Position numbers and translations under genes: made by a program
Assembly (NCBI GenBank): GCA_964471165.1
Contig: CAYYEX010000006.1
Coordinates: 19,779 to 83,778, forward strand
DNA from: an uncultured Candidatus Saccharibacteria bacterium
GTDB taxonomy: Bacteria; Patescibacteriota; Minisyncoccia; Phycocordibacterales; UBA2100
Length of the DNA: 64,000 nt
Direction of reading: 5' to 3'
In this document: one piece after another, positions 2,836 to 57,199 of the stretch
Position numbering within the stretch: position 1 is the stretch's first letter
How the letters are laid out: each line of letters begins with the position of its first letter
Notes under the pieces: model-generated
Told to the model about the DNA's origin: nothing
Seen by the model: only the letters and a program-made list of their open reading frames with translations
Database searches by the model: none

Positions 2836-4047
2836 ATGAAGCCCCGTATTCTGATGTTCGGGTGGGAGTTTCCACCGTTCAATAGCGGCGGTTTAGGGGT
2901 GGCATGCCAGGGACTCACCAAATCACTCTCCGAGCGAGGGTTCCAAGTTACCTTTGTGATGCCACGAAAACTCGCAATTTCATCGCCGCATGCACGAATG
3001 GTTTTTGCCGACAACGCCGACGTAAAGATTCGCAGCTTTGATTCTGTGCTCGAGCCCTATATGACAAGCAAGTCGTATTTGCGTGAACGAACGCAAGAAG
3101 GCACAACCATCTACGGACGCGATTTGTTCGAGGAGGTTGAGCGCTACAAAATGATGGGCTCAGAAATCGCCAAAGAAGAAGACTTCGACATTATCTATGC
3201 TCACGACTGGCTTTCGTTTGGTGCGGGTGTGGAGGCCAAGTACGCAACTGGTAAACCCCTCATCGTGCACGTGCACGCTACCGAGTTCGACCGCTGCGGC
3301 GGACCCAACGTAAACCAGCATGTATATAACGTGGAGAAATGGGGAATGGAAGAAGCCGATCGCGTAATTGCAGTTTCGGAGCTCACGCGACAAATCATCA
3401 TCAAGGAATACGGTATTAACCCTGACAAGGTGCGCGTTGTGCACAACGGAATCGACGAAAGCACCGCACCATCCGGCGCCGGCTGGAAGCGCATGCGCTC
3501 ACTCAAGGCTGCCGGATACAAAGTTGTGTTGTTTTTGGGCCGCATCACCATCCAAAAAGGACCCGACTACTTTATTCGAGCGGCGCAGCGCGTGCTGGAG
3601 CGCAATCCGAAAGTAATGTTCGTGGTTTCGGGCTCAGGCGATATGGAAGAAGGCATGATGAGGCTTGCCGCACAACTCAATATTTCTCAGAATGTACTCT
3701 TTACCGGATTCCTCTCGGGCGGAGACCGCCACGAGATGTATACATCGTCGGATTTGTTCGTCATGCCGTCAATTTCGGAACCATTTGGTATTACACCGCT
3801 CGAAGCAATGAAATTGGGCACGCCCGTCATGATTTCCAAGCAATCAGGTGTTTCAGAGATTGTGCGCCACGCACTCAAAATCGATTTCTGGGATGTTGAC
3901 GAAATGGCCAACAAAATCCTCTCGGTTGTTGGAAATCCCGGGCTCAAAGAAACACTCTCGCAATACGCACGTGATGAAGCAGACAAAATCACCTGGGCCG
4001 ACGCCGCAAAAAAGGTAGATGGGATTGTTCGCGAACTCGTACATTAG
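2836..4047 (+). CDS. glycosyltransferase, glycogen/alpha-glucan synthase-like (GT4/GT5)
   Basis: The N-terminal motif FPPFNSGGLGVA resembles the K-T-G-G-L glucan-synthase motif, and the ORF has a GT-B length. It is the first gene of the glucan cluster. Confidence 0.75.
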   Translation: MKPRILMFGWEFPPFNSGGLGVACQGLTKSLSERGFQVTFVMPRKLAISSPHARMVFADNADVKIRSFDSVLEPYMTSKSYLRERTQEGTTIYGRDLFEEVERYKMMGSEIAKEEDFDIIYAHDWLSFGAGVEAKYATGKPLIVHVHATEFDRCGGPNVNQHVYNVEKWGMEEADRVIAVSELTRQIIIKEYGINPDKVRVVHNGIDESTAPSGAGWKRMRSLKAAGYKVVLFLGRITIQKGPDYFIRAAQRVLERNPKVMFVVSGSGDMEEGMMRLAAQLNISQNVLFTGFLSGGDRHEMYTSSDLFVMPSISEPFGITPLEAMKLGTPVMISKQSGVSEIVRHALKIDFWDVDEMANKILSVVGNPGLKETLSQYARDEADKITWADAAKKVDGIVRELVH

Positions 4048-4111
4048 GAGTTCTCCACTGCTGCGAAAATAAATCGAGATTTTAGGCGGTATAATACGGA
4101 TAATTCTCTGT

Positions 4112-5308
4112 ATGAAATCGGTCTGCTTTTATTTCCAAGTTCACCAGCCATATAGAGTAAAGAAGTATCGGGTCTTCGATATAGGGAATGACCCGGAATA
4201 CTTTAACGACCGTTCCGACACTTCTCTCAACAACCGAAAAATCGTAGAGAAGGTTGCAAACAAGTCGTACATCCCGGCAACTCGATTGTTGTTGGATTTA
4301 ATGAAGCGTCATCCGGAGTTCCACGTGAGCTTTTCGTTTTCCGGGATTGCACTCGAACAGCTCGAGCGGCATGCTCCCGAAGCACTCGATTTGTTCAAAC
4401 AGGTGGTTGATACTGGGCGCGCAGAAGTGCTTGGCGAAACCTACTACCATAGCCTCGCGTTTTTCTATTCGCCGGCAGAGTTTGAACGACAGGTTACCAA
4501 GCACCGCGATATCATTCGACGCATTTTTGGTGCCCGACCACGGGTGTTCCGCAATACCGAGCTTTCGTACCGCAACGATTTGGCCACGTGGGCCGATAGC
4601 CAGGGTTATGCAGGCGTCATCTCCGAAGGTTGGGACCCGATTTTGGGCTGGCGCTCACCGAACTATGTCTACACTCCGAAGGGGGCAAACAGCACGCGCT
4701 TGTTGATGAAAAACTACCGCCTCTCCGACGACGTAGCGTTTCGTTTCTCGTCGCGAGAGTGGAGCGAGTGGCCACTTACTGCAGAAAAGTTTGGACAGTG
4801 GCTCTCTGCTGCAGACGGCGACACAATTAACCTGTTCATGGACTACGAAACATTTGGAGAACACCAGTGGGAAGACTCCGGCATCTTTGCGTTCCTCGAT
4901 AAATTGCCAGAAGAAGTGTATCGCAATCCAGAAATCGGATTCCACACACCGTCGCAAGTTATTCAACAATACGAAGCGCGCGACGAAGTCGATATGCCGC
5001 ATATTGTTACCTGGGCAGACACTGACCGCGATTTGACCGCGTGGGTGGGCAACCCAATGCAGAAAGCTGCGATTGAAGCCGTGTACTCACTCGAAAACGA
5101 TGTCTTGCAGGCAAACGACGGCAGGCTCATCGAGGACTGGCGCAAGCTCCAGACGTCGGACCACTTCTACTACATGTGCACCAAGTGGTCAGCAGATGGC
5201 GATGTGCACGCATACTTTTCGCCATACGAGTCTCCATATGATGCCTACATCGCGTACATGAACGCGCTCTCTGATCTTCGACTTCGAGTGCAGAAGATAA
5301 AGATGTAG
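4112..5308 (+). CDS. glycoside hydrolase family 57 protein (alpha-amylase / glucan-processing enzyme)
   Basis: It has the N-terminal FQVHQPYR motif characteristic of GH57 and an appropriate length. Confidence 0.75.
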   Translation: MKSVCFYFQVHQPYRVKKYRVFDIGNDPEYFNDRSDTSLNNRKIVEKVANKSYIPATRLLLDLMKRHPEFHVSFSFSGIALEQLERHAPEALDLFKQVVDTGRAEVLGETYYHSLAFFYSPAEFERQVTKHRDIIRRIFGARPRVFRNTELSYRNDLATWADSQGYAGVISEGWDPILGWRSPNYVYTPKGANSTRLLMKNYRLSDDVAFRFSSREWSEWPLTAEKFGQWLSAADGDTINLFMDYETFGEHQWEDSGIFAFLDKLPEEVYRNPEIGFHTPSQVIQQYEARDEVDMPHIVTWADTDRDLTAWVGNPMQKAAIEAVYSLENDVLQANDGRLIEDWRKLQTSDHFYYMCTKWSADGDVHAYFSPYESPYDAYIAYMNALSDLRLRVQKIKM

Positions 5309-5348: not shown

Positions 5349-7310
5349 ATGTCGAGATCAATGGTTCTATCCAATGGAGAGTTATGTGTCGCGTTTGACC
5401 ACAACGCGCTTATTCGTGATATCTACTATCCGCACGTTGGACTTGAAGACCATGTGCGCGGTCACTACATTCACCGTGTAGGTATTTGGGTTGACGGTAC
5501 GATGTCGTGGTTCGGAGATGACTCGAGGTGGGAGATTCGCGTTGGTTCTGAAACGGATGCGCTGGCTGGTGCAACAGTTGCCTGGCACCCTGATTTGCGT
5601 GTTGAAATAAAGCTTACCGACATCATCTATCACGATAAGCCGATTCTTGTTCGCCGTGCCTCTGTGCTCAACAAGGGCGACCAGAATCGCGTGATTAAGA
5701 TGTATTTTGCGCACCAGTTCGAGATTTACAAGGCGCATGGTTCAGACACAGCATATTTTGACCCCGCATCGCACTCCATTATTCACTACAAGGGGCATCG
5801 CGTGTTCATCATGAGTGGCACCCTCGATGGCGAGCGCTTTGAAGACTATGTAATGGGTCGCGCAAATTTCCAGGGTAAAGAAGGTTCGCATCGCGATGCC
5901 GACGACGGGCAACTCACAAAAAATCCGATTGAACACGGTCCGGCTGATTCCGTGATGGGACTCTACGCGTCGTACGCACCAGGACAATCGCGCACGGTGT
6001 ACTACACGCTCGCTGCAGCAAAGTCGATTCGCGAAGCACACGAGCTGCAGGATTTCATAGAAAAAAAGACTGCGGAGAAGCTCATTAAGGAAGCCGCTAA
6101 CTTCTGGCATGCATGGGTAAACGCGTATCAGTGGAATTTTCGCGACCTCTCACCAGAGCACATTACGCTTTTTAAACGCTCGCTCATGTTTATGCGCGCG
6201 CACGTCGACAAAGACGGGGCAATTATTGCCTCTGTTGATTCCGACATGCTCCAGTACGGGCTCGATACGTATTCCTACATGTGGCCGCGCGATAGCGCGT
6301 ATGTGGCACACGCGCTCGATATGGCGGGAGACACCCACATTTCTCGCCGCTTCTTTGAGTTCTGCCGCGAAGTCATTCACGAGAAGGGATATTTGATGCA
6401 CAAATACTTGCCCGACTTCTCGCTCGGCTCCTCGTGGCACCCGTGGCTCAAGGATGGTCAAGTGCAATTGCCGATTCAAGAAGACGAGACCGCCCTTGTC
6501 ATATGGGCACTGTACGAGCACTACATGCAGAGCAAGGATTTGGAGTTTCTCGAAACAATGTACGCGCCACTCGTAGAAAAGGCTGCGAACTTTCTTGTTC
6601 GCTACCGCGATGAGGCAACGGGGCTGCCGGATGCATCGTATGACTTGTGGGAACGAAAGCGCGGCATTTCTACCTATACAAGCTCCACGGTTTTCGGCGC
6701 ACTCAAGGCAGCGCACGAACTATCTAAGATTCTTGGGCGTGATAGCAATGCCGAAATTTATGAGAAAGCCGCGGAGGAAATTCGTGAAGCCATACTCAAG
6801 CATCTATGGGACGAAAAAGAGGGGATATTTGTGAACATGCTCGTGCGCACCAAGGACGGTGCAACATTTGACCGAACCGTCGACATATCGAGCGCCTATG
6901 GAATATTCAGTTTCGGAGTATTACCGACTACGGACCCGCGACTTGAACGAGCATTTGAACAGTCGGTGCGCATTTTGTCGCACGGGATTCCGGCAGGCGG
7001 CATAGCTCGTTTTACCAACGATGACTACTACCAGGTCGTTACGACCGCACCAGGGAATCCATGGGTAATTACAACGCTTTTCTACGCGGAATATCTGATT
7101 GCAAAGGCAAAGCACCCGCAAGATTTGAACCGTGTGCGAGACATTTTCTCCTGGGTGGTTAAACATGCCCAACCAAGCGGAGTGCTCTCGGAGCAAATGC
7201 ATCCGGATACCGGGCTCCAGATTGGGGCCACCCCGCTCACATGGGCGCATGCGTCGTATGTGAGTGCAGTTTTGCAATACCTCGCAAAGGCCGACGAACT
7301 CGGGGTGTAG
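5349..7310 (+). CDS. glycoside hydrolase family 15 glucoamylase/glucodextranase-like protein
   Basis: Length (653 aa) and the N-terminal ALIRDIYYPHVG region fit GH15, which has a C-terminal (alpha/alpha)6 catalytic domain. A second GH15-like gene lies at 26723. Confidence 0.75.
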   Translation: MSRSMVLSNGELCVAFDHNALIRDIYYPHVGLEDHVRGHYIHRVGIWVDGTMSWFGDDSRWEIRVGSETDALAGATVAWHPDLRVEIKLTDIIYHDKPILVRRASVLNKGDQNRVIKMYFAHQFEIYKAHGSDTAYFDPASHSIIHYKGHRVFIMSGTLDGERFEDYVMGRANFQGKEGSHRDADDGQLTKNPIEHGPADSVMGLYASYAPGQSRTVYYTLAAAKSIREAHELQDFIEKKTAEKLIKEAANFWHAWVNAYQWNFRDLSPEHITLFKRSLMFMRAHVDKDGAIIASVDSDMLQYGLDTYSYMWPRDSAYVAHALDMAGDTHISRRFFEFCREVIHEKGYLMHKYLPDFSLGSSWHPWLKDGQVQLPIQEDETALVIWALYEHYMQSKDLEFLETMYAPLVEKAANFLVRYRDEATGLPDASYDLWERKRGISTYTSSTVFGALKAAHELSKILGRDSNAEIYEKAAEEIREAILKHLWDEKEGIFVNMLVRTKDGATFDRTVDISSAYGIFSFGVLPTTDPRLERAFEQSVRILSHGIPAGGIARFTNDDYYQVVTTAPGNPWVITTLFYAEYLIAKAKHPQDLNRVRDIFSWVVKHAQPSGVLSEQMHPDTGLQIGATPLTWAHASYVSAVLQYLAKADELGV

Positions 7311-7329
7311 GCCCTGCTACAATCGTTGT

Positions 7330-7926
7330 ATGGACTTTACCGAATTTGAGCCGTACGCAGCTCGCTCTCACGAGAAGATGCGTGATGTGCTCATGCAGCC
7401 CAACGCCAAAGGACCGGCGATTCACTACTACATGATTCGCGGCGGCAAAAACAAGAAAAACGTGACAGTGTGGGAGTCGGGCACTGTGGGTGGTGAATAC
7501 ATCAAAACCTACGGCCACTACCATATCGGAAATCTCGACGAAACGTATTGGATTGTGCAGGGAGAAGGCGTGGCACTGTTGCAGAAGATGGTAGAAGAGA
7601 ACGGCGTGTACCAACCAGACAAAATCGAAGAGTTCAAAGCCGTTCGAGTAAAAGCAGGGGATTCGGTGTATATGCCACCAGGATACGGACATTTGGTAGT
7701 GAATACGGGTCCGCAATGGCTCGTAACCACCGATGATTCGCCGGTGGCAGATGCGGGGGACTCGGCCTCCATGCCGGGGCATGCCGACTACGAGCAGGTA
7801 AAGAAAATGGGAGGCTTTGCCTACTACGTGATTGAACAAAATGGTTCTCCCGCCTTGGTGAAGAATCCTCGCTATACTGAAGTACGTGCATCAGACTTCG
7901 GTGGCCTACCGATTGCGACTCAATAA
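7330..7926 (+). CDS. cupin-type (archaeal-type) glucose-6-phosphate isomerase
   Basis: It carries the TYGHYH...ETY...G motif and GDSVYMPPGYGHLVVNTG (PF06560-like). The start was chosen at MDFTEF because the upstream in-frame part overlaps the GH15 gene. Confidence 0.65.
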   Translation: MDFTEFEPYAARSHEKMRDVLMQPNAKGPAIHYYMIRGGKNKKNVTVWESGTVGGEYIKTYGHYHIGNLDETYWIVQGEGVALLQKMVEENGVYQPDKIEEFKAVRVKAGDSVYMPPGYGHLVVNTGPQWLVTTDDSPVADAGDSASMPGHADYEQVKKMGGFAYYVIEQNGSPALVKNPRYTEVRASDFGGLPIATQ

Positions 7927-7932
7927 AAAATT

Positions 7933-8754
7933 ATGTTCATCGTTGCAGACATAGGTGGGACAAAAATACGCATCGCAAAGAGCGATGATTTGAAAACATT
8001 TGGGGAACCAATTATCCAGAATACGCCGCAGGATTATCCCTCTGGCATCGAACTCTTTAAATCAACGGTGCAAGACTTAGTGGGCATTGGCACAAAACTC
8101 GATGGAGTAGCTATCGGAATCGCCGGCCCGCTCTCGCCCGACAAGCGCAGTACGTATCTCACGCCGCACTTGCAATGGGGCGGTCGCACACTCGCCGACG
8201 ATATGGAGTCTGCGCTATCCGCAAAAGTGCATCTTGAAAACGACGTTGCACTTGTGGGACTTGGCGAGGCCGTTGTTGGGCCGGGAGCGTCGGCATCAAT
8301 AGTGGCCTACATTACCGTTTCAACCGGGGTAAATGGGGTGCGCATCGTGGACCAAAAGATTGACCGCTCAGCAGAAGGATTCGAAATCGGCGGGCAGTTT
8401 ATGTCGGTGGAGGAGCCGATTCTCACACTCGAAGATATGGTTTCTGGAACCGCCGTTGAAAAGACGTTTGGCATGAAGCCAAGAGATATAGGCAAAGACA
8501 ATCCGGTGTGGGAGGAGCTTGCGCAAATTCTTGCCTACGGTGTGCATAACACAATCGTGCATTGGTCGCCAAACCGCGTCATCCTAGGAGGTTCCATGTT
8601 TAACGAAGTTGGTATTTCGGTCGCGAGTGTGGAGAAGCACGTAAAAGAAGTAATGAAAAAGTTTCCAATAGTTCCGGAAATTGTTCACTCAGGCCTCGGC
8701 GACGTGGGCGGACTCCATGGGGGGCTGGAGTTGCTGAGACAATCTCATTCATAA
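7933..8754 (+). CDS. ROK/BadF-type sugar kinase (putative glucokinase)
   Basis: It has an N-terminal ADIGGTKIR ATPase motif of the actin-fold sugar kinases and is the last gene of the glucan cluster. There is no ROK Zn-Cys motif, so the family is uncertain. Confidence 0.6.
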   Translation: MFIVADIGGTKIRIAKSDDLKTFGEPIIQNTPQDYPSGIELFKSTVQDLVGIGTKLDGVAIGIAGPLSPDKRSTYLTPHLQWGGRTLADDMESALSAKVHLENDVALVGLGEAVVGPGASASIVAYITVSTGVNGVRIVDQKIDRSAEGFEIGGQFMSVEEPILTLEDMVSGTAVEKTFGMKPRDIGKDNPVWEELAQILAYGVHNTIVHWSPNRVILGGSMFNEVGISVASVEKHVKEVMKKFPIVPEIVHSGLGDVGGLHGGLELLRQSHS

Positions 8755-31162: not shown

Positions 31163-31239
31163 TGGAGATGCGGGTAGGAATTGAACCTACGTCTCCTGTC
31201 TTGCAGACAGGCGCCTGAATCCGTCTCGGCGACCGCATC
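31163..31239 (-). tRNA. tRNA-Cys (anticodon GCA), CCA encoded
   Basis: I folded the cloverleaf by hand. The acceptor GAUGCGG/CCGCAUC pairs for 7 bp, the discriminator is U73, the anticodon loop is CU-GCA-AG and the T-arm is GUAGG-UUCAAUU-CCUAC. Confidence 0.85.
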
Positions 31240-35452: not shown

Positions 35453-36538
35453 ATGAGCAACCGTTCACAGGCCGCAAGTGGCAAAATACTCTCGCTGCAG
35501 AGTGAAGCGCCCGGTTTCTACGCATATGCAGAATCGAATCCAAGTGCGATTCTCGTAACAAACACAAAGGGTGAAATCGAATACGTTAATGCCGCATGGG
35601 TGCGGCTGACGGGGTACACAAGCAAAGAGGTGCTTGGAAAAAACCCACGTTTTTTGAGTAGCGGAAAGTCTCCAAAAGGTTTGCACAAGCTGCTCTGGGC
35701 CGCACTCGCCAACGGAGAAACTTTTGAGAGTGATGAATTTGTCGATAAGAGGAAAGACGGATCATTTTTTTCTTTGAGCGCGGTATTTTTCCCCGCTCAG
35801 CTACGCAAAGACATCACATACTTCGTTCAGGTGCTACAAGACATATCAAACAAAAAGGAAATAGAGAAGTTGAAAGACTCGTTTATTAGAACGGCTTCGC
35901 ATGAGCTTCGTAACCCACTTTCGGCGCTGGTGTTCTCGCTTGATCTACTGAAGCATGAGCTCGGCTCAATACCCGCGGCGGCTAAGGACGCGCTCGAAAC
36001 ATTGTCTTCTGAAATGGTTCGCTTCAGGTCTCTCTTCAACTATCTGCTCGACGCAAACAAAATTCATGCGGATACCTTTCACGTTCACCGAGAGCGAAAA
36101 AATCTTCTTCGCGTTATCGAAAGAGTCGTTGAAGAGATACGAGGCATATTTCCAAGCCACAGGCTCCTAATCGAAAACATGAGCGACCACCCGTTTGCCC
36201 TCGTTGATGAGGCGAGAATCGAGCAGGTTCTGATAAATCTCATTTCCAATGCTGTTAAATATTCTCCTGAGGCGAATCGCGTAATAATTCGATTGGCTGA
36301 AGAGACGGATGCGCTCACGGTGTCGGTACAGGACTTCGGTATTGGTATCCCGCGAGACGAGCAGGCAAAGATATTTGAGATGCTGTATCGAGCCAAAAAT
36401 AAAGGCGATATTCAGGGGAGTGGTTTTGGCTTGTACATATCAGCACAGATTCTTGCTGCGCATGAAACTCACTTTTCGGTTGAAAGTGACACAAACACGG
36501 GCTCTACTTTCTCTTTCTCGCTACCGCTCCTCCAGTGA
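35453..36538 (+). CDS. cytoplasmic PAS-domain sensor histidine kinase
   Basis: It has a PAS domain (NAAWVRLTGYTSKEVLGKNPRFL), a HisKA H-box (ASHELRNPL) and an HATPase_c domain (GIGIPRDE...GSGFGL). Confidence 0.8.
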   Translation: MSNRSQAASGKILSLQSEAPGFYAYAESNPSAILVTNTKGEIEYVNAAWVRLTGYTSKEVLGKNPRFLSSGKSPKGLHKLLWAALANGETFESDEFVDKRKDGSFFSLSAVFFPAQLRKDITYFVQVLQDISNKKEIEKLKDSFIRTASHELRNPLSALVFSLDLLKHELGSIPAAAKDALETLSSEMVRFRSLFNYLLDANKIHADTFHVHRERKNLLRVIERVVEEIRGIFPSHRLLIENMSDHPFALVDEARIEQVLINLISNAVKYSPEANRVIIRLAEETDALTVSVQDFGIGIPRDEQAKIFEMLYRAKNKGDIQGSGFGLYISAQILAAHETHFSVESDTNTGSTFSFSLPLLQ

Positions 36539-36854
36539 ATGTGAGAGAATTTTCTGCTACTGCGGGTAGGATTCTCCCTCGATTAAAAACTCGCCGTCGC
36601 TCAAGTTTGTCTGGGCGCCTCCTCATTGTTCGCCCCACTCGGCACACATTGCTCCGGCGGTCGAATCCTACGTGAACTTGGCGCATGTACGGTTCTCCGC
36701 AGGACCGCATATGAAAAGAGCGCCTTTCGGCGTCTTTTCAAATCGCCCCCCGTAGGACGACTTCAAAACTATTGAGTGGAGCCAAACTGTCCGCAAGTTA
36801 GTTGCGTTCGGCTTCATTTCTGGAATCAGTGAATAACGAAGCGGACACCGACAA

Positions 36855-37343
36855 TTAGAGCACTTGTGCAAAAACTATGCAGTAATTGTGTCCATATTTC
36901 TTTACACACTTCGGGCAGTAGGCGAAATGAAAATAGTACTTTAATGACTTCTGATTGCGAGTCGCCAAAAAAGTGTCCATTGCCGTAATCCATTTTGGTA
37001 CATGATTATACGGGCCATCGAAGATCTTGCTAACGAATGTCCCGGAAAGTCGAACGACTTTTCCATCGGGAATTTCTTTGGTAATCGTCATGTGAATTTC
37101 CGATCGCCAGGGTGAAGGGTCGTATGCAAGCATGAGAAAATCCTGGGTTTCTGGCATGGCATCTGCCGTCTCGATTTTCTTAAACATGCGATTGACGACC
37201 GATGACATATTCAATGGAACATGCATGATTTGAACCACGTCGTCTCGCAGGAACATCTTGTTCGTCCAGATGTGTGTCTTTTCATCCCACAATGAGGGAT
37301 CGAATGGCAGGCAGCACTGACTAGGGTCGCTGTTATGCTTCAT
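36855..37343 (-). CDS. hypothetical protein with a C-terminal CxxC zinc-ribbon-like motif
   Basis: It is a 162-aa ORF with protein-like composition (CPKCVKKYGHNY). Confidence 0.45.
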   Translation of the reverse strand: MKHNSDPSQCCLPFDPSLWDEKTHIWTNKMFLRDDVVQIMHVPLNMSSVVNRMFKKIETADAMPETQDFLMLAYDPSPWRSEIHMTITKEIPDGKVVRLSGTFVSKIFDGPYNHVPKWITAMDTFLATRNQKSLKYYFHFAYCPKCVKKYGHNYCIVFAQVL

Positions 37344-43131: not shown

Positions 43132-43416
43132 ACGATGCCAGTCGTTTTTTCTATGAGCTCGTCAGGTTTCGGGAAATCTTTCTGCATGAAGTGTGCGCAG
43201 TATAGTCCACATCCTAACTTAGTTGTTTCTTCGACGGCTCCAGATTGGGGAAAATTGGCTCAGATATCATGAAAGGTGTCGTTTCTCCTCTAGTTGATTA
43301 TCCATGTATTTCTTCACCAACCGAGGTTTTTGCCTCGGTTCGTCCAACGTTGCTCCGCTCGAGAATCCATTCACTGCGTGTTATGGATTCCCGCGTTCGC
43401 CTCGAAGAAAAAGAAA

Positions 43417-43445
43417 ACGCCCTTCGCAGGGCGTCCTCTTTTTAC
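43417..43445. terminator. bidirectional intrinsic terminator
   Basis: The hairpin acgcccttcgcagggcgt is flanked by an A-run upstream and a T-run downstream. Confidence 0.55.
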
Positions 43446-43450
43446 TTCTC

Positions 43451-43580
43451 GGCTCCGTCGGTAGGATTCGGTCACGAGTTGCTAAGTATTTTGGGCTGCT
43501 GCGCGCCAAAATACTAAGCACTCTCGACCCCGGCTCGCGCCGATGCTCGGCGCTCCGCCTTTCGAATCCTACCGACGGAG
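43451..43580. repeat. nested long palindrome containing a partial copy of the tRNA-Asn 3' region
   Basis: An 18-bp outer stem (ctccgtcggtaggattcg / cgaatcctaccgacggag) encloses a 15-bp inner stem (tgctaagtattttgg / ccaaaatactaagca). The left arm matches the tRNA-Asn 3' end at 19 of 21 positions. Confidence 0.6.
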
Positions 43581-43630
43581 TGAATCAGTAAGGCCCCAGT
43601 CCTCGCGGACCAGGGCCTAACTGCTTCATG

Positions 43631-43702
43631 CTCCGCGGGTAGGATTCGAACCTACGACCAATCGATTAACAGTCGACCGCTCTACCGCTGAGCTACCGCG
43701 GA
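43631..43702 (-). tRNA. tRNA-Asn (anticodon GTT), no encoded CCA
   Basis: I folded the cloverleaf by hand. The acceptor is UCCGCGG/CCGCGGA, positions 8-9 are U8 A9, the D-arm is GCUC-AGCGGUA-GAGC, the anticodon loop is CU-GUU-AA, the T-arm is GUAGG-UUCGAAU-CCUAC and the discriminator is G73. Confidence 0.9.
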
Positions 43703-43907
43703 ATGTGTTGCCGATTATAGCCACAATTTGCCCAATTTCAAAGGGGAAAGCAGGGATGTGACCGAAGTTTACGTCGCGGCCTTGATTGACAAAGAAGGGC
43801 CGCAACCTATTAATAGTGGAAGAAGGTACGTGGGCGGGCATTCATCGTTTCGACCGCAGGCAGTCTGATGTTCGGATTGTGTGCGGTCGGGGTGATGTGC
43901 GCATTGC

Positions 43908-44372
43908 TTGTCGACCGCACTGCAGCAAATGGGAGTGAACATGAAGAGTTTTGTGGCTGCCAACTTTTTTGCGAGGCGCTCGGAGTATCCCTGGCTCGTT
44001 CGTCAACCGGACCAGGACTGGGACCAGAAACAGGCCGTGCGTTCGGTTCTCGCGAGCCGCGTGACATTCGGCCCGTCCGGCCTGTTCGAACGCACGTTCG
44101 GCTGCACGATTATCGCTGAATGCGCAATTGCGCTCGGCAGCGACGTCGATGCGCCGGCACACGAGGGCGAAGTCCGTCTGCGCTTCCATCCGGGCTATGG
44201 CTTCTTCACGGCCCGCATGCAGATTGTCGAGTCCTGCGAGAATCTGCGGCTTGCAAGCGATGGCTCGGTGCATGCCGTGCTCGCGCATGTCGGCGCCGTC
44301 GACAATCGCTACGCCACCCCTGTTGCCGAGGACGCGGCCGGCGCTTATCAGTCCATGTTCTTCAACATGTAG
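43908..44372 (+). CDS. hypothetical protein encoded in a GC-rich cassette next to tRNA-Asn
   Basis: Its protein-like composition contrasts with the Arg-rich alternative frames. An intrinsic terminator at 44436-44462 follows, and GC is visibly higher than the flanks. Confidence 0.4.
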   Translation: MSTALQQMGVNMKSFVAANFFARRSEYPWLVRQPDQDWDQKQAVRSVLASRVTFGPSGLFERTFGCTIIAECAIALGSDVDAPAHEGEVRLRFHPGYGFFTARMQIVESCENLRLASDGSVHAVLAHVGAVDNRYATPVAEDAAGAYQSMFFNM

Positions 44373-44435
44373 CCGTCGGCGTTCTTCAAGACGCAGACGT
44401 GGGTTTGTTCACCAACCGTTTCTTTCATCGGCAAA

Positions 44436-44462
44436 CAACCGCCGTGGAGGAGCGGTTTTTTG
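44436..44462 (+). terminator. intrinsic terminator
   Basis: The hairpin aaccgc-cgtggaggag-cggtt is followed by ttttgttt. Confidence 0.5.
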
Positions 44463-44489
44463 TTTGCGCACTGCGGTTGTGTACGCTTA

Positions 44490-45938
44490 ATGCGTTACAA
44501 TGACGCCGTGTCGTTCTCCAGAAATCATCCACGATTGAAAATTGCGCTCATAAAAGCCGCGGCTACTTTTGTGGTTATTGCTGCTGTTGGTTTTGGAAGC
44601 TTTCAATACGGATACAAGCGTGGCGCGGGTGACATCATCGGAGCGCCATCGTGGGCAGGGCTCGTGAACACCACATCAAGTGGCGAGCCATCGCTTGTGC
44701 TCGACGACCCAGGAACAAAAACCGATTTCGGCGACTTTTGGAAAACATGGGCAATTCTCGATAAAAACTTTGCGCCCACCTCCACCTCATCCTCTGCAAC
44801 TAGCACGAGTGAAGCGCGAGTGGCGGGAGCCATTGCAGGACTCGTCGCATCTTACAATGACCCATACACCATATTTCTCCCCAAAGAGAATGCCAATGCA
44901 TTTAAAGAGCAGGTAAATGGAGAGTTCGAGGGAATCGGAGCGGCACTCGATATTACAACGGCCGACGGCGTGATTGTGATAGGCCTCTTGCCCGATAGTC
45001 CTGCACAAAAAGCTGGCATCAAACCGGGTGACCGTATTCTCGCGGTCGACGGCGACCCGACGCTTGGCAAAAAGCTGGAAGATGTTATTCCGCATATCCG
45101 CGGGGCTAAGGGCACGCCTGTGCGATTAACGATTGTGCCAGCAAAGACACAGAGTGAGAAAGTTATCGAAGTCGTGCGCGGAACCGTTGTTATCCCGACT
45201 ACTGCAACTCGCGTAGTTTCTGCCGCGAAGAATGTCGTTGCAGCGGCAGTTGCCAAGGCAACTGCCGCCGTCGCTGCTGCAGTACCGGGTTCCAGAGAAG
45301 CGGCACAGGCAAAAGAACAAGTTGAACAAGCGAAGAAACAAAAATTCTTTGTTCTCCAGCTCGCAACATTTACAAAAACATCGACCGACGCGTTTGTGAC
45401 GGACTTAGAACGATTTGCGAAGTCCGACACGAAAAATCTCATTATTGATTTACGAAATAATCCGGGAGGGTACTTGGAAGTGGCCAACGACCTCGCAAGC
45501 TATTTCCTGCCGAAAGATACACTGGTCGTTACCGAAAAGTCTGGCTCAAATGCGCAGACCATGGAGTATCGAAGTCGGGGATATGGTGCACTTGAGGCAA
45601 TGGGCACTTCGTCGCGGCGAATCATTGTGCTCTTGAATCGTAACAGTGCCTCGGCATCAGAAATATTGGCCGGTGCTCTGCAGGATTATGGCGTAGCGAA
45701 AGTAGTAGGGGAACAGTCATTCGGTAAGGGTTCGGTGCAAACAATTATTGATATCGGAAAAATTGGCACGCTGAAAATTACGGTAGCTCGCTGGTATACG
45801 CCGAAGGGGAGAAACATTTCCCACACCGGTATCGCACCAGATATTGTGGTCGATCTTAAAGATCCGAAATATGCGAGTTCTACCGACCCATACATCGACG
45901 CTGCAGTCGAAACACTGCTGGACGATAGTAAGTGGTAA
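44490..45938 (+). CDS. C-terminal processing peptidase (S41 family, PDZ-containing)
   Basis: It has a transmembrane anchor, a PDZ region (GIKPGDRILAVDG) and S41 catalytic blocks (LRNNPGG, SASASE). Confidence 0.8.
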   Translation: MRYNDAVSFSRNHPRLKIALIKAAATFVVIAAVGFGSFQYGYKRGAGDIIGAPSWAGLVNTTSSGEPSLVLDDPGTKTDFGDFWKTWAILDKNFAPTSTSSSATSTSEARVAGAIAGLVASYNDPYTIFLPKENANAFKEQVNGEFEGIGAALDITTADGVIVIGLLPDSPAQKAGIKPGDRILAVDGDPTLGKKLEDVIPHIRGAKGTPVRLTIVPAKTQSEKVIEVVRGTVVIPTTATRVVSAAKNVVAAAVAKATAAVAAAVPGSREAAQAKEQVEQAKKQKFFVLQLATFTKTSTDAFVTDLERFAKSDTKNLIIDLRNNPGGYLEVANDLASYFLPKDTLVVTEKSGSNAQTMEYRSRGYGALEAMGTSSRRIIVLLNRNSASASEILAGALQDYGVAKVVGEQSFGKGSVQTIIDIGKIGTLKITVARWYTPKGRNISHTGIAPDIVVDLKDPKYASSTDPYIDAAVETLLDDSKW

Positions 45939-54383: not shown

Positions 54384-54884
54384 ATGAACAGTCGCAGGAG
54401 TGGGCAGGTTGCAAGTTTGTCAGTGATGGCATTCGCGCTTGCCCTTGGCGGATGTGATGTGGACCAAGCGCCGATTCAGCGCGACGTCTACGCCGGCATG
54501 TCGCCGTCTGAAGCGCTCCAGCAGTGCGCAATTGACTGGGGGTCTCAGGACCTTTGCGTCAGCATTGCTGACGCGAAACAGAAGGAAACTGCAGAGAAGC
54601 AGTACGCTGCTTCATCTGGCTCGTCGCACGGTGGAGGCGGTGTCTTCTTCGTGCACGGACCCGGCTACGGCTACGGCGATCGATCGATCGTCTCGGGTTC
54701 GCAGCGGATCGTTCCGCAAAGCGCACTCAATACGTCGGCTCTCGTTAAACCGTCGTCGATCTCCACGTTCTCAAACACGGGGGGATTCCGCGGCGGGATC
54801 AGCACTGCAACAGCTGCGGGTCGCGGCGGGTTCGGTGCGACCGGACACGCTGCAGCCGCGGCCTCATCTGGAGGGGGAAGCTAA
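54384..54884 (+). CDS. DUF1190-like lipoprotein (YgiB/YjfM-like)
   Basis: It has a lipobox (LALGGC) and a Gly-rich C-terminus with RGGFGATG-like motifs as in enterobacterial YgiB. GC is high. Confidence 0.55.
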   Translation: MNSRRSGQVASLSVMAFALALGGCDVDQAPIQRDVYAGMSPSEALQQCAIDWGSQDLCVSIADAKQKETAEKQYAASSGSSHGGGGVFFVHGPGYGYGDRSIVSGSQRIVPQSALNTSALVKPSSISTFSNTGGFRGGISTATAAGRGGFGATGHAAAAASSGGGS

Positions 54885-56042
54885 ATGAAGCGTTCAATCA
54901 TCAGTCCGCGCGAAGACTGGCAGAAGCGATGCGAACGCATCGACTTCGGCTGGCACACGCAGGGCGGTGTCAAATACTGGAACGAAGGCGTGTGCTATCG
55001 CTTCACGGCCGCGCAGATCGATCAGATCGAAGCGGCCGCCGAAGAAGCACACGCGATGTGCATGGCGCTCGTCGCCGACATCATCACGCGTGGACGATAC
55101 GAGGGCTTCCGCTTTCCCAAGCAGGTGCTCGACATGATCGTCCCGACCATCGAAGCGTCGTGGAAACGGAGTGATCCGTCCCTCTACGGCCGCTTCGACT
55201 TCGGCGTGAAATTCGTGAACGGTGCACTCGGGCTCAAGCTTTTTGAAAACAATGCGGATACGCCGACCTCTCTCTACGAGGCGTCGGTCGTACAGCATTT
55301 GTGGATGAAGGATCTCGGGTTCGCCGATCAGTTCAACTCGATCGAGGAGAAGATGGATGCGTTCTTCAAGGCGCATCCGGCAACGCACATGCACTTCGTC
55401 GCGCTGCGCGACGCGGGCAAGGAAGACTGGGGCACGGTCGGCTACATCGCTGAACGTGCCGAAGAGTGCGGCAAGAGCGTCAATATCCTCTCGGTCGAAG
55501 ATCTCGGCTGGGACGGAAAACAGGCATTCACGGATCTGAGCAATACACCCATCGGCACGGCCTTCAAGCTGTATCCTGGTGAGTGGATGTTCGGGGACGT
55601 GTTTGGTCAAAACATGGCGCTGACAACGACCCGGTGGATCGAACCGCCGTGGAAAACTCTGCTGTCGTCCAAGGCGATCTTGCCACTCTTGTGGGAAAAG
55701 TATCCCAATCATCCGCTGCTGCTCCCTTCGTTCTTCGAAGCCGACGGCGACAAGATGATGGAAGGTGACTGGATCAAGAAGCCGCTGTTTTCGCGCGAGG
55801 GTTCCAACGTGTTCCACGTGCGTGATGGCGTCGAAGAACTTGCTGCCGGGTCACACCTCAGCAGCTTCTACGAACATTACGGCTACATCGGCCAGCAACG
55901 CTTCGACTCGTCGAAGTTTGACGGCATGATGCCCGTGTTGGGCGCGTGGATCGTGAACGGTGAAGCAGCCGGCATGGGCATCCGCGAGGACGCCGGTGTT
56001 ACTGGAAACGGCAGCCTATTCACTCCGCACTACTTCGACTAA
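54885..56042 (+). CDS. glutathionylspermidine-synthase-like ATP-grasp amidoligase (YgiC/YjfC family)
   Basis: It shares blocks with E. coli YgiC that I recall from memory (ENNADTPTSLYEA, LLPLLWEKYPNHP, KPLFSREGSNV, GIREDAG). Confidence 0.8.
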   Translation: MKRSIISPREDWQKRCERIDFGWHTQGGVKYWNEGVCYRFTAAQIDQIEAAAEEAHAMCMALVADIITRGRYEGFRFPKQVLDMIVPTIEASWKRSDPSLYGRFDFGVKFVNGALGLKLFENNADTPTSLYEASVVQHLWMKDLGFADQFNSIEEKMDAFFKAHPATHMHFVALRDAGKEDWGTVGYIAERAEECGKSVNILSVEDLGWDGKQAFTDLSNTPIGTAFKLYPGEWMFGDVFGQNMALTTTRWIEPPWKTLLSSKAILPLLWEKYPNHPLLLPSFFEADGDKMMEGDWIKKPLFSREGSNVFHVRDGVEELAAGSHLSSFYEHYGYIGQQRFDSSKFDGMMPVLGAWIVNGEAAGMGIREDAGVTGNGSLFTPHYFD

Positions 56043-56068
56043 CATCAACAGCTCACGAGGGAACTACG

Positions 56069-56497
56069 ATGACTCCTGAACAATTACTGTTCTTCGCAAT
56101 TGCATTCGGCAAACATCTGATTGCATTTGCGCTCGCGATCGCATTGCTCACAGGATTCACGCGCTTCTATGTATGGTTCACGCCATACAACGAGTTCGAC
56201 GAGATCCAGGCAGGCAGGGTCGCCTCGGCGATCTCGCTCGGCGGAGCCATGATCGGCTTCACTATCCCGCTGCTGGTTGCCATGTTGGTTACGACCACCA
56301 TGTACGGTTTCGTCGCCTATCTCGGCATGTTTACGGTGTGGGCCGGGTTTGTCTGCCTTGTTCAGCTCGGCTGCTTCAAGGTGATGTACCGGTTCTACCC
56401 GAAGCAGATCGAGTCCAACAACATTGCGGCCGCGACTATCTACGCGTTCGTATCTGCTTGCGTCGGCGCGCTGAACGCCGTCTGCATCATTCCCTGA
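56069..56497 (+). CDS. DUF350-family membrane protein (YjfL-like)
   Basis: It has 4 transmembrane helices (AFALAIALLTG..., SLGGAMIGFTIPL) as in YjfL. Confidence 0.55.
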   Translation: MTPEQLLFFAIAFGKHLIAFALAIALLTGFTRFYVWFTPYNEFDEIQAGRVASAISLGGAMIGFTIPLLVAMLVTTTMYGFVAYLGMFTVWAGFVCLVQLGCFKVMYRFYPKQIESNNIAAATIYAFVSACVGALNAVCIIP

Positions 56498-56536
56498 TTT
56501 CAGCGGACTAAAATTCAAACAGGAGCAAGGAAGACA

Positions 56537-57199
56537 ATGAGCTACGAAAACTCTGCGACCCGACGTTCGTCTGGCAACGGCTGGAAGATCTTCGGCATCA
56601 GCATGCTGGTGGGCGCGATCATCATCGCGATCTTCGGCTACAACCTGACGCTTGGTTCGCGCAACGTGCTGGTGCGTCACAATAACAACCTGGAAGGCAC
56701 GTTTGCCGGCATCAACAATGCGGCGCAGAAGCGCGCCGACATCGTTCCGAACATGGTTTCGGTCGTCGATCGCTTCGCGAAGCAGGAGAAGGATGTGACG
56801 ATCGGTGCGACCGAGGCGAGGGCGAAAGCCACCTCGATCACATTGCCGCAGAACGCCACCCCCGAACAGATCGAAGCGTTCGGCAAGGCACAGCAGGAAA
56901 TGTCCGGTGCCCTCGGCCGGTTGCTCGCGGTCTCGGAGAGGTATCCGGACCTCAAGAGCGACAAGCTGTTCCTCGACCTGCAGGCGCAGCTCAAGGAAAG
57001 CGAGACGCAGATGTCCGGCGCTCGCGCGGCCTATATCCGCGCGGTGCAGAGCTACAACGTGAACGTGGAATCCTGCCCGTTCGCCTGCGTTGCGGCGATG
57101 ATGTTCGGCTACCAGAAGAAGCCGCAGCTCGACTTCGGTCCTGATGCCGCACAGCGTCGTGCGGCACCTCCGAAGGTGGAGTTCAACAAGAAGGACTGA
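56537..57199 (+). CDS. lemA: LemA-family protein
   Basis: An N-terminal transmembrane helix is followed by LemA blocks (RYPDLKSDKLFLDLQAQL, AAYIRAVQSYN). Confidence 0.8.
   Translation: MSYENSATRRSSGNGWKIFGISMLVGAIIIAIFGYNLTLGSRNVLVRHNNNLEGTFAGINNAAQKRADIVPNMVSVVDRFAKQEKDVTIGATEARAKATSITLPQNATPEQIEAFGKAQQEMSGALGRLLAVSERYPDLKSDKLFLDLQAQLKESETQMSGARAAYIRAVQSYNVNVESCPFACVAAMMFGYQKKPQLDFGPDAAQRRAAPPKVEFNKKD

Follow-up and report, generated by a model that had tools for sequence, protein, structure and literature searches.

Y elements are small palindromic elements whose two arms follow the 3′ end of a neighboring tRNA gene. Two copies are found in the window considered here, a 64,000-nt stretch from an uncultured Candidatus Saccharibacteria bacterium (assembly GCA_964471165.1, contig CAYYEX010000006.1, positions 19,779 to 83,778), and about 40 copies of one architecture were recovered in total by pattern scanning and covariance modeling. 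They apparently constitute a conserved, undescribed family of ~110–130-nt non-coding elements located just downstream of tRNA genes; full-text literature searches returned no description of the Y element. The evidence is best fitted by a small non-autonomous module which inserts by recombination at the T-loop/3′ end of tRNA genes and is maintained for its fold as a single strand, the closing helix of which mimics the acceptor/T-stem stack of the tRNA.

The first copy in the window (copy 1, 43452–43581, minus strand) lies behind tRNA-Asn (anticodon GTT), an intact, intron-free gene at 43630–43702 (ARAGORN; Rfam RF00005, 74 bits) on the minus strand, where a preliminary description of this DNA had placed it. 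The closing helix, P1, is formed by 43453–43470 and 43563–43580, a perfect 18-bp inverted repeat with 92 nt between the arms; as a terminal inverted repeat, it extends to 29 nt at 83%. It encloses two arm hairpins, A (43470–43529) and B (43532–43559). The 18-mer, together with related sequences, is present three times in the 64 kb, where 0.04 occurrences would be expected. The preliminary description had recognized the 18-bp palindrome correctly, but the second, “15-bp perfect” hairpin that it reported pairs at 14 of 15 positions (43480–43494/43506–43520), and the overall shape had escaped it. When folded, 43452–43581 forms a stable three-way junction with z = −12.5 on the minus strand and −13.3 on the plus strand relative to shuffled sequences. 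A covariance model of the family, R1, which was built from six members, scores copy 1 at 69.6 bits (E = 4e-14) on the minus strand.

Both arms of copy 1 carry tRNA sequence. The left arm is a direct copy of the tRNA-Asn 3′ end, identical at 17 of 19 positions (43452–43470 versus 43630–43648) and situated 158 nt from the tRNA. This partial repeat had been noted before, although its count of 19 matches in 21 nt is corrected to 17/21 over 43451–43471. The right arm, previously overlooked, repeats the tRNA end in inverted orientation (20 nt, 90% complementary). P1 reads CUCCGUCG-GUAGG... paired with ...CCUAC-CGACGGAG and matches the tRNA-Asn end at 16 of 18 positions. Copy 1 presents what identifies a minihelix mimic, namely, a continuous stack of acceptor (7 bp) and T-stem (5 bp) with real tRNA sequence; in the fold, the closing helix takes up the T-loop sequence, so that no T hairpin is formed. 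A hidden tRNA or transfer-messenger RNA (tmRNA) on the plus strand was considered and rejected, as ARAGORN calls none and the arm has no T-stem partner beside the T-loop sequence.

A direct repeat of a tRNA end 158 nt from the tRNA, with two mismatches and no integrase nearby, at a locus that behaves as a hotspot in relatives, may also be read as what is left of a past integration or excision at tRNA-Asn, an inert scar in decay whose palindrome is incidental. The preliminary description had raised such a remnant as one possibility. The two mismatches argue otherwise: the left arm departs from the tRNA at just these positions (TC for CG), exactly where pairing requires it, and the change gives perfect pairing with the right arm. 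In the related copy L067, the tRNA sequence is retained at the same two positions, and two stem mismatches result.

The family was delineated by scanning JGI metagenomes for the two arms at the observed spacing (GGTAGGATTC, 75–105 nt, TTCGAATCCTA). The scan returned 48 loci, ~34 of which exhibit the full architecture adjoining a tRNA: a copy of the tRNA 3′ end, a ~90-nt two-hairpin core, an inverted copy, a 31–90-nt spacer, and the tRNA itself, which lies opposite to the pattern strand. The remaining 14 are coding regions, other unrelated sequence, and ordinary tRNAs. The neighboring tRNAs in this set are Asn, Tyr, Ser, Arg, Lys, and Trp, to which R1 added Leu. R1 recovered the scan members together with copies outside the reach of the arm pattern, i.e., window 36565–36670, L086 3268–3377, and L109 7994–8118. 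ARAGORN places a tRNA 31–80 nt upstream on the same strand for 26 of the 40 R1 hits, and four further hits follow tRNA-Asn genes that ARAGORN overlooks, two of which (L078 and L106) harbor a group I intron according to Rfam. The orientation of the element relative to the tRNA is constant, always on the tRNA strand. In the relative L017, a unit of equal size and shape occupies the same place as copy 1 with a different interior. Because the tRNA-Ser loci adjoin serS genes 76–90% identical to Candidatus Omnitrophota proteins, the architecture is found in at least two phyla, Saccharibacteria and Omnitrophota.

Rfam scans of the window and other copies (E up to 0.5–10, or gathering thresholds) retrieved only tRNAs and group I introns as known RNA families. 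No Rfam 15 family, including tmRNA, YrlA, small ribozymes, 6S, and SRP, matched beyond chance in the copies scanned, and weak hits such as mir-583 and Plastid-ycf2 reflect fortuitous similarity to hairpins or to tRNA antisense. The tRNA-Asn genes of several relatives contain a 250–330-nt insertion after the anticodon-loop sequence and are therefore overlooked by ARAGORN. Group I introns (RF00028, 52–81 bits) are assigned in the tRNA-Asn of L015 (667–918), L078 (233–475), L106 (7506–7837), and L107 (99–385), while the insertion in L017 (~4025–4310) falls below the Rfam gathering score. The contig L109 carries a single-strand cluster of seven tRNAs (6790–8307; Arg, His, Arg, Lys, Leu, Gly, and others) interspersed with two full Y elements and several truncated units.

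The sequence of the arms depends on the tRNA that the element follows. Behind tRNA-Leu(CAA), the arms of the L086 copy (3268–3377) are AGGGAGTCG / CGACTCCC, which correspond to the T-arm of that tRNA. On L109, the copy behind tRNA-Arg(TCT) (7994–8118) has the arms GCAGGATTCG / CGAATCCTGC, and the copy behind tRNA-Arg(TCG) on the same contig has GGTAGG... / ...CCTAC. As the L086 and L109 copies indicate, both arms change with the neighboring tRNA, down to one compensated base difference in the T-stem, and the acceptor portions match each neighboring tRNA as well. The direct repeat always begins in the T-loop (CGAATCC or GAATCC) and ends at the tRNA end plus 0–8 nt, for a total of 18–27 nt.

These properties bear on whether Y elements are ordinary miniature inverted-repeat transposable elements (MITEs). 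The 18-bp terminal inverted repeat with its imperfect extension to 29 nt, the size of ~130 nt, the presence of two copies in 64 kb, and the spread of the family over many loci would suit such an element. However, the terminal repeats vary with the neighboring tRNA instead of being constant, and the direct repeat overlaps the left arm and starts in the T-loop, so that there is no fixed short target duplication. The unvarying orientation to the tRNA is likewise foreign to a MITE, and the open reading frames (ORFs) within 4 kb gave no sign of a parent insertion sequence bearing such ends. An ordinary MITE is thus a very improbable explanation.

The fold of the Y element appears in its pattern of sequence change. 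RNAalifold, applied to six members, predicts 35 pairs, 18 of which show compensatory changes. In a model-based alignment of 38 distinct sequences, 94.4% of cells are paired, compared with 69.5% after shuffling and 29–47% in slid controls, and double changes occur in 30 of the 35 pairs (230 cells versus 70 shuffled/expected); fitting of this alignment to the model inflates the figures somewhat, yet the slid controls and a small structure-blind alignment agree with them in direction. The T-stem part is paired in all members (helix 1, 99% paired). In tRNA sense, the consensus consists of P1 (UAGGAUUC / GAAUCCUA), GAAA, a first hairpin, GG, and a second hairpin. The first hairpin contains a GGA/GA internal loop set between covarying triplets (GGC/GCC, GUC/GAC, GAC/GUC, and GCC/GGC) and a C(AGCA)G loop, and the second is capped by a C(GACG)G loop.

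One strand is favored over the other. The tRNA-sense fold is the more stable in 30 of 34 elements, with a mean difference of 5.9 kcal/mol (Wilcoxon p = 2e-6). In paired columns read in tRNA sense, G-U and U-G number 31 versus 6 for A-C and C-A, and G-A and A-G number 26 versus 7 for C-U and U-C; the Omnitrophota copies carry purine-rich internal loops on the tRNA-sense strand. The asymmetry in energy and wobble indicates selection on one strand in single-stranded form. Taken together, compensatory changes, strand-specific wobble, and conserved loops point to selection for the fold and not to decay. An inert scar, or the decayed attachment-site remnant that had been proposed for copy 1, is difficult to reconcile with ~40 copies in two phyla that share these features; it is largely refuted by the family-level covariation and is very improbable overall.

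The second copy in the window (copy 2, 36560–36702, minus strand), which the preliminary description had overlooked, has no detectable adjacent tRNA (R1 49.5 bits, E = 3e-9; no Rfam match). Its arms are CTGCGGGTAGGATTC / GTCGAATCCTAC...TCCGCAG, and it is located between a histidine kinase gene (35453–36538, plus strand) and a Bact_hydrolase gene (36855–37343, minus strand). Upstream of it in tRNA sense are a bidirectional terminator (36714–36740) and a “pseudo-end” that resembles a tRNA 3′ end (36744–36769). Pseudo-ends precede several of the tRNA-less copies; as exemplified by GTTTTGAAGTCGTCCTACGGGGGGCG in the window, they resemble the T-loop and 3′ end of a tRNA interrupted by 4–5 inserted nt. 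The motif, GGTTCGAA followed by 4–5 nt ending in CG, TCCNAN, and an acceptor-like run, is observed at window 36744–36769, in L104, L071/L094, and L079/L084, and in L093 near 8287. Copies 1 and 2 share an orientation and are separated by 6.7 kb that include minus-strand genes. The tRNA-Cys gene at 31163–31239 is without any such Y element.

Y elements also occur in series. L110 harbors two different units one after the other, and arrays of full and truncated units are present in L109 and L075, with a further case in L107; repeats of 38–67 nt in L075, L109, and L110, which were considered as long target duplications, are tandem units. The spacers are shared to varying extents. Between the window and L067, both at tRNA-Asn, the spacer is 81% identical and the core 67%, the latter being the level between any two members, and the spacer hairpin of L086 behind tRNA-Leu is 60–68% identical to that of the window. 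In L093, a 235-nt direct repeat (3314–3548/8301–8535, 99% identical), comprising the tRNA-Asn tip, the spacer, the Y element, and 40 nt of flank, borders 4.75 kb of DNA that encodes proteins of 1403 and 103 aa with no Pfam match.

Such arrangements are central to a close rival, possible but on balance doubtful, in which the Y element is a DNA-level attachment module of tRNA-targeting integrative elements and is non-functional as RNA. The closing hairpin of one strand would then reproduce the T-stem/acceptor duplex of the tRNA gene, and a recombinase would see a copy of its chromosomal target. Consistent with this proposal, the direct repeat runs from the T-loop to the tRNA end or up to 8 nt past it, which is the pattern of T-loop integration sites. 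Some loci have units in tandem or truncated, and Y elements stand at both ends of the cargo in L093 and possibly in the window (43452–43581 and 36560–36702). The inverted, target-like arms would in addition fit the CTX attP, reportedly described by Val et al. in 2005 as two inverted target-like sites ~90 nt apart.

The tRNA-Asn locus in relatives is informative in this regard. An S41 peptidase gene at 44490–45938, which assigns the window to Candidatus Saccharibacteria, has orthologues that are 71–76% identical on L015, L016, and L017. Relative to these closest relatives, gene order is kept right of 44490 and broken at tRNA-Asn, and the DNA downstream of tRNA-Asn is different in all four genomes compared. 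Large serine recombinase genes with Resolvase, Recombinase, and Zn_ribbon_recom domains abut or overlap the tRNA-Asn 3′ end in L015 (1–633) and L016 (2831–4352) of assemblies GCA_043780835.1 and GCA_040959275.1, which indicates that elements have integrated at exactly this tRNA end, a further point in favor of a DNA-level module. In L017, unrelated small genes and ClpP follow the tRNA. What fills the slot from the tRNA to the S41 gene varies as well: L016 and L017 have a response regulator there, L015 a 185-aa ORF with a histidine kinase and a Big_13 protein, L142 a 242-aa gene, and the window a GC-rich ORF. The 185-aa ORF (L015 806–1363), beside an intron-containing tRNA-Asn, has Cys pairs and His residues that resemble an HNH nuclease motif as judged by eye from the DNA. 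In the DNA examined from more distant relatives (L139–L141), the peptidase gene is not preceded by a tRNA-Asn.

On the basis of the synteny break and the varied flanks, the tRNA-Asn locus is a hotspot, and the suggestion in the preliminary description that it gains and loses cargo is borne out by the comparison with relatives. A palindrome kept in all of them without variation in cargo is not what is seen; flanks and interior vary. The statement that no integrase is present is likewise consistent with the search results: only ~160 nt of non-coding DNA separate the repeats, none of the five neighboring window proteins tested has a recombinase domain, and the ORFs of L015 and L016, including the serine recombinases, find no recombinase match in the window. 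No second tRNA-end copy was detected at the far end of the L016 serine recombinase element within the 4.3 kb examined, and the far ends of the L015 element were likewise not found in the DNA examined.

Several of the same observations speak against the DNA-level module. The L015 and L016 serine recombinase elements are without a Y element in the DNA examined, and no recombinase is linked to Y elements among the ORFs within 4 kb; the comparison of these ORFs for a linked protein yielded only housekeeping synteny, with serS beside tRNA-Ser. No copy was found in the viral contigs scanned, where a phage origin was sought. A degenerate tRNA-end pattern retrieved mostly ordinary tRNA-Asn genes and truncated copies, none with the TC variant, and the sole non-tRNA hit (L049) falls in a coding region; core-specific patterns gave 24 matches judged compatible with chance, none of which is an element by the model. 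The tetraloop-like conserved loops and the purine-rich internal loops are more RNA-like, and those elements that sit among the clustered tRNA genes of L109 would be transcribed in any case.

The transcription context of copy 1 can be laid out along the minus strand. A sigma-70-like promoter of tRNA-Asn (43714–43741; TTGAAA, 16-nt spacer, TATAAT; 11/12 matches in a promoter scan) is followed by the tRNA, a spacer hairpin (43581–43628; ...CAGUUAGGCCC...GGGGCCUUACUG...) that lacks a strong U tract and was not called as a terminator in the terminator scan, the Y element, and, directly past it, a strong bidirectional terminator (43443–43408). The terminator, which the preliminary description had correctly noted beside the palindrome, was recovered in repeat and terminator scans; on either strand, it reads as a G+C-rich hairpin with a U run behind it. 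Within the L109 cluster of seven tRNAs, the scan called no terminator-like site immediately before or after the two full Y elements. Transcription of the module with its tRNA, and a role as RNA, is the favored reading of these sequences, if at slightly under even chances.

A number of points weigh against this interpretation. A terminator-like hairpin with a U tract parts tRNA and element in 15 of 36 copies, which argues against simple co-transcription at those loci and suits the DNA-level module, and no promoter for the Y element alone was found. The asymmetry in wobble and energy is equally expected for folded single-stranded DNA, and the pairs were counted in an alignment that had been fitted to the model. 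Neither a recombinase nor a transposase or reverse transcriptase is consistently near the elements in an all-versus-all comparison of ORFs within 4 kb, and none was seen near the window copies. No pair of empty and filled but otherwise identical loci was obtained. Lastly, the Omnitrophota copies score weakly with R1 (18–26 bits, mostly from the arms); they may be analogous rather than homologous, and the scan pattern selected for these arms.

The mechanism proposed for a transcribed, recombining module is as follows. In tRNA sense, the module comprises the spacer hairpin, an inverted copy of the last ~12–20 tRNA nt, the ~90-nt two-hairpin core, and the direct copy. The inverted copy, which spans the T-loop, the 3′ strand of the T-stem, and the acceptor, is predicted to pair with the direct copy, forming the closing helix of a Y-shaped three-way junction. 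The module may arrive by recombination at the T-loop/3′ end of tRNA-Asn through some recombinase acting in trans. It would supply a replacement tRNA 3′ end upon arrival, and the displaced older end would become the 3′ strand of P1. In the window, it would be transcribed from the tRNA-Asn promoter, from 43741 through the terminator at 43443–43408, and the transcript would fold as RNA with a closing helix that mimics the tRNA minihelix. In light of the predicted mimicry, excision by the tRNA-end processing enzymes RNase P and RNase Z is possible. In its broadest and more speculative form, the proposal is of a new class of mobile module that might encode a minihelix-capped RNA or a folded single-stranded DNA site, with a closing helix re-templated for each tRNA, and that would use the host tRNA-end machinery for processing or recombination and seed tRNA-proximal variable regions in ultra-small bacteria (Saccharibacteria and Omnitrophota).

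The GC-rich gene in the slot between tRNA-Asn and the S41 gene (43941–44372, plus strand, 143 aa, GGGAG upstream) was examined by ORF listing, GC content at the third codon position (GC3), homology searches, and AlphaFold2. The preliminary description had placed an ORF of 43908–44372 with its own terminator in a GC-rich segment of 760 bp. The end at 44372 and the terminator stand, the latter being a terminator-like site at 44441–44456 plus a T run reaching 44465, but the start is likelier to be the ATG at 43941, as in the product on record. The GC shift persists on calculation, although the segment is shortened to ~500 bp (roughly 43900–44400): the ORF has a GC content of 0.618, compared with an average of 0.511 across the window (z = 3.3, top 0.8% of 432-nt windows), and GC peaks for the entire 64 kb at 43971. 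Besides 43870–44031, only ~54400–56850 reaches ORF-like GC (432-nt windows ≥ 0.62; 2-kb GC up to 0.575). The codon-position GC of the ORF (0.65, 0.47, and 0.74, with a GC3 of 0.743 versus 0.49–0.61 in neighboring genes) follows the pattern typical of a real high-GC gene.

A word-indexed protein search matched the ORF product to itself alone, and an exhaustive HMMER search retrieved 165 small proteins (E up to 0.001), remote homologues that are 30–45% identical and have neither a Pfam domain nor a PDB sequence match. AlphaFold2, with a 40-sequence alignment, gives a confident all-beta model (pLDDT 87.8) with no Foldseek match in the PDB. The ORF is, on homology and structure prediction, a real gene encoding a member of an uncharacterized family of small all-beta proteins. 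The gene is absent at this position in the relatives compared, which makes a foreign origin plausible. Its description as a cassette is unproven, since it is situated on the 5′ (promoter) side of the tRNA, opposite to the side at which tRNA-targeting integrases insert, and has no significant flanking repeats.

A few further observations concern the surroundings of tRNA-Asn in the window. Downstream of it is a gene for a 328-aa protein of unknown family, and two extra hairpins (43316–43343 and 43360–43393) lie in the 275 nt of leader sequence (43132–43407) that separate this gene from the terminator. A 15-nt direct repeat matching at 14/15 positions (43309–43323 / 44404–44418, TTTCTTCACCAACCG / TTTGTTCACCAACCG) brackets the Y element, tRNA-Asn, and the GC-rich ORF; with a rough chance estimate of ~5% for the region, it is not significant alone. 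Two Logan contigs from the same organism, L001 (ERR3094292) and L002 (ERR3094302), match the window at 100% identity wherever they were aligned, as judged by inspection for L001 and by alignment for L002. These independent assemblies both end at the same base within tRNA-Asn (window 43657), which suggests a branch of the assembly graph at the 3′ half of the tRNA.

Among known systems, the nearest concept is that of islands anchored at tRNA genes, which carry partial tRNA repeats and integrate in tandem; a structured module is not described for them. Islands of this kind, in the known cases, are driven by tyrosine or large serine recombinases (10.1101/2020.12.28.424599). With attL/attR partial tRNA repeats and islands such as the tycheposons of Prochlorococcus (10.1101/2020.12.28.424599), Y loci share the direct repeat of a 3′ part of the tRNA, tandem units at the tRNA, variable cargo, and a synteny break at the tRNA, here with serine recombinases at this tRNA in two relatives. 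They differ in that just ~160 nt of non-coding DNA lie between the repeats, and within this DNA the tRNA end recurs in inverted form together with a core of two covarying hairpins; the words hairpin, palindrome, and stem-loop do not occur in the tycheposon paper (10.1101/2020.12.28.424599). No integrase is linked to Y elements, and recombinase genes were encountered in relatives only, with no search aimed at tycheposon hallmarks.

Structured recombination sites offer a second comparison. CTX attP(+) and integron attC sites are imperfect palindromes of ~60–150 nt, sometimes forked, in which structure is conserved over sequence and function is strand-specific. A conserved fold and a strand bias are present in Y elements as well, features that would fit RNA as readily as single-stranded DNA. 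In contrast to attC, the closing stem is perfectly paired and lacks the extrahelical bases typical of those sites, and, in contrast to both, the two Y arms stay adjacent in the chromosome. No link of Y elements to XerCD or IntI was shown, no search for IntI, Xer genes, or core motifs having been made.

With the tRNA-like domain of tmRNA, the bacterial Y RNA YrlA, and mascRNA-type mimics, the Y element shares a helix like the acceptor/T-stem stack and the context of tRNA transcription, and like them it could be recognized by tRNA-end processing enzymes. In contrast to these RNAs, it has no T-loop hairpin, ARAGORN and Rfam report no tmRNA, YrlA, or other family in the copies scanned, and the mimic varies with the adjacent tRNA. 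REP/BIME, Correia, RPE, and other MITE-like repeats are likewise short, palindromic, non-coding, multi-copy, and non-autonomous. However, these families keep constant ends and are tied to no single gene class, whereas Y elements are tied to tRNA 3′ ends in a fixed orientation, with ends that copy the neighbor.

tRNA genes are classic landing sites for foreign DNA, and these sites are usually regarded as unstructured short repeats. Here, a presumed scar is a conserved, covarying fold that copies the neighboring tRNA, in two phyla of bacteria with reduced genomes. The Y element can be put to the test as a substrate of RNase P, RNase Z, and recombinases. If it acts as RNA, it would represent a new class of tRNA-linked non-coding RNA in organisms whose RNA biology is almost unknown; if it acts as a folded DNA site, it would extend recombination by single-strand folds to tRNA targets. 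Either way, the Y element is a marker for tRNA-proximal variable regions in metagenome bins.

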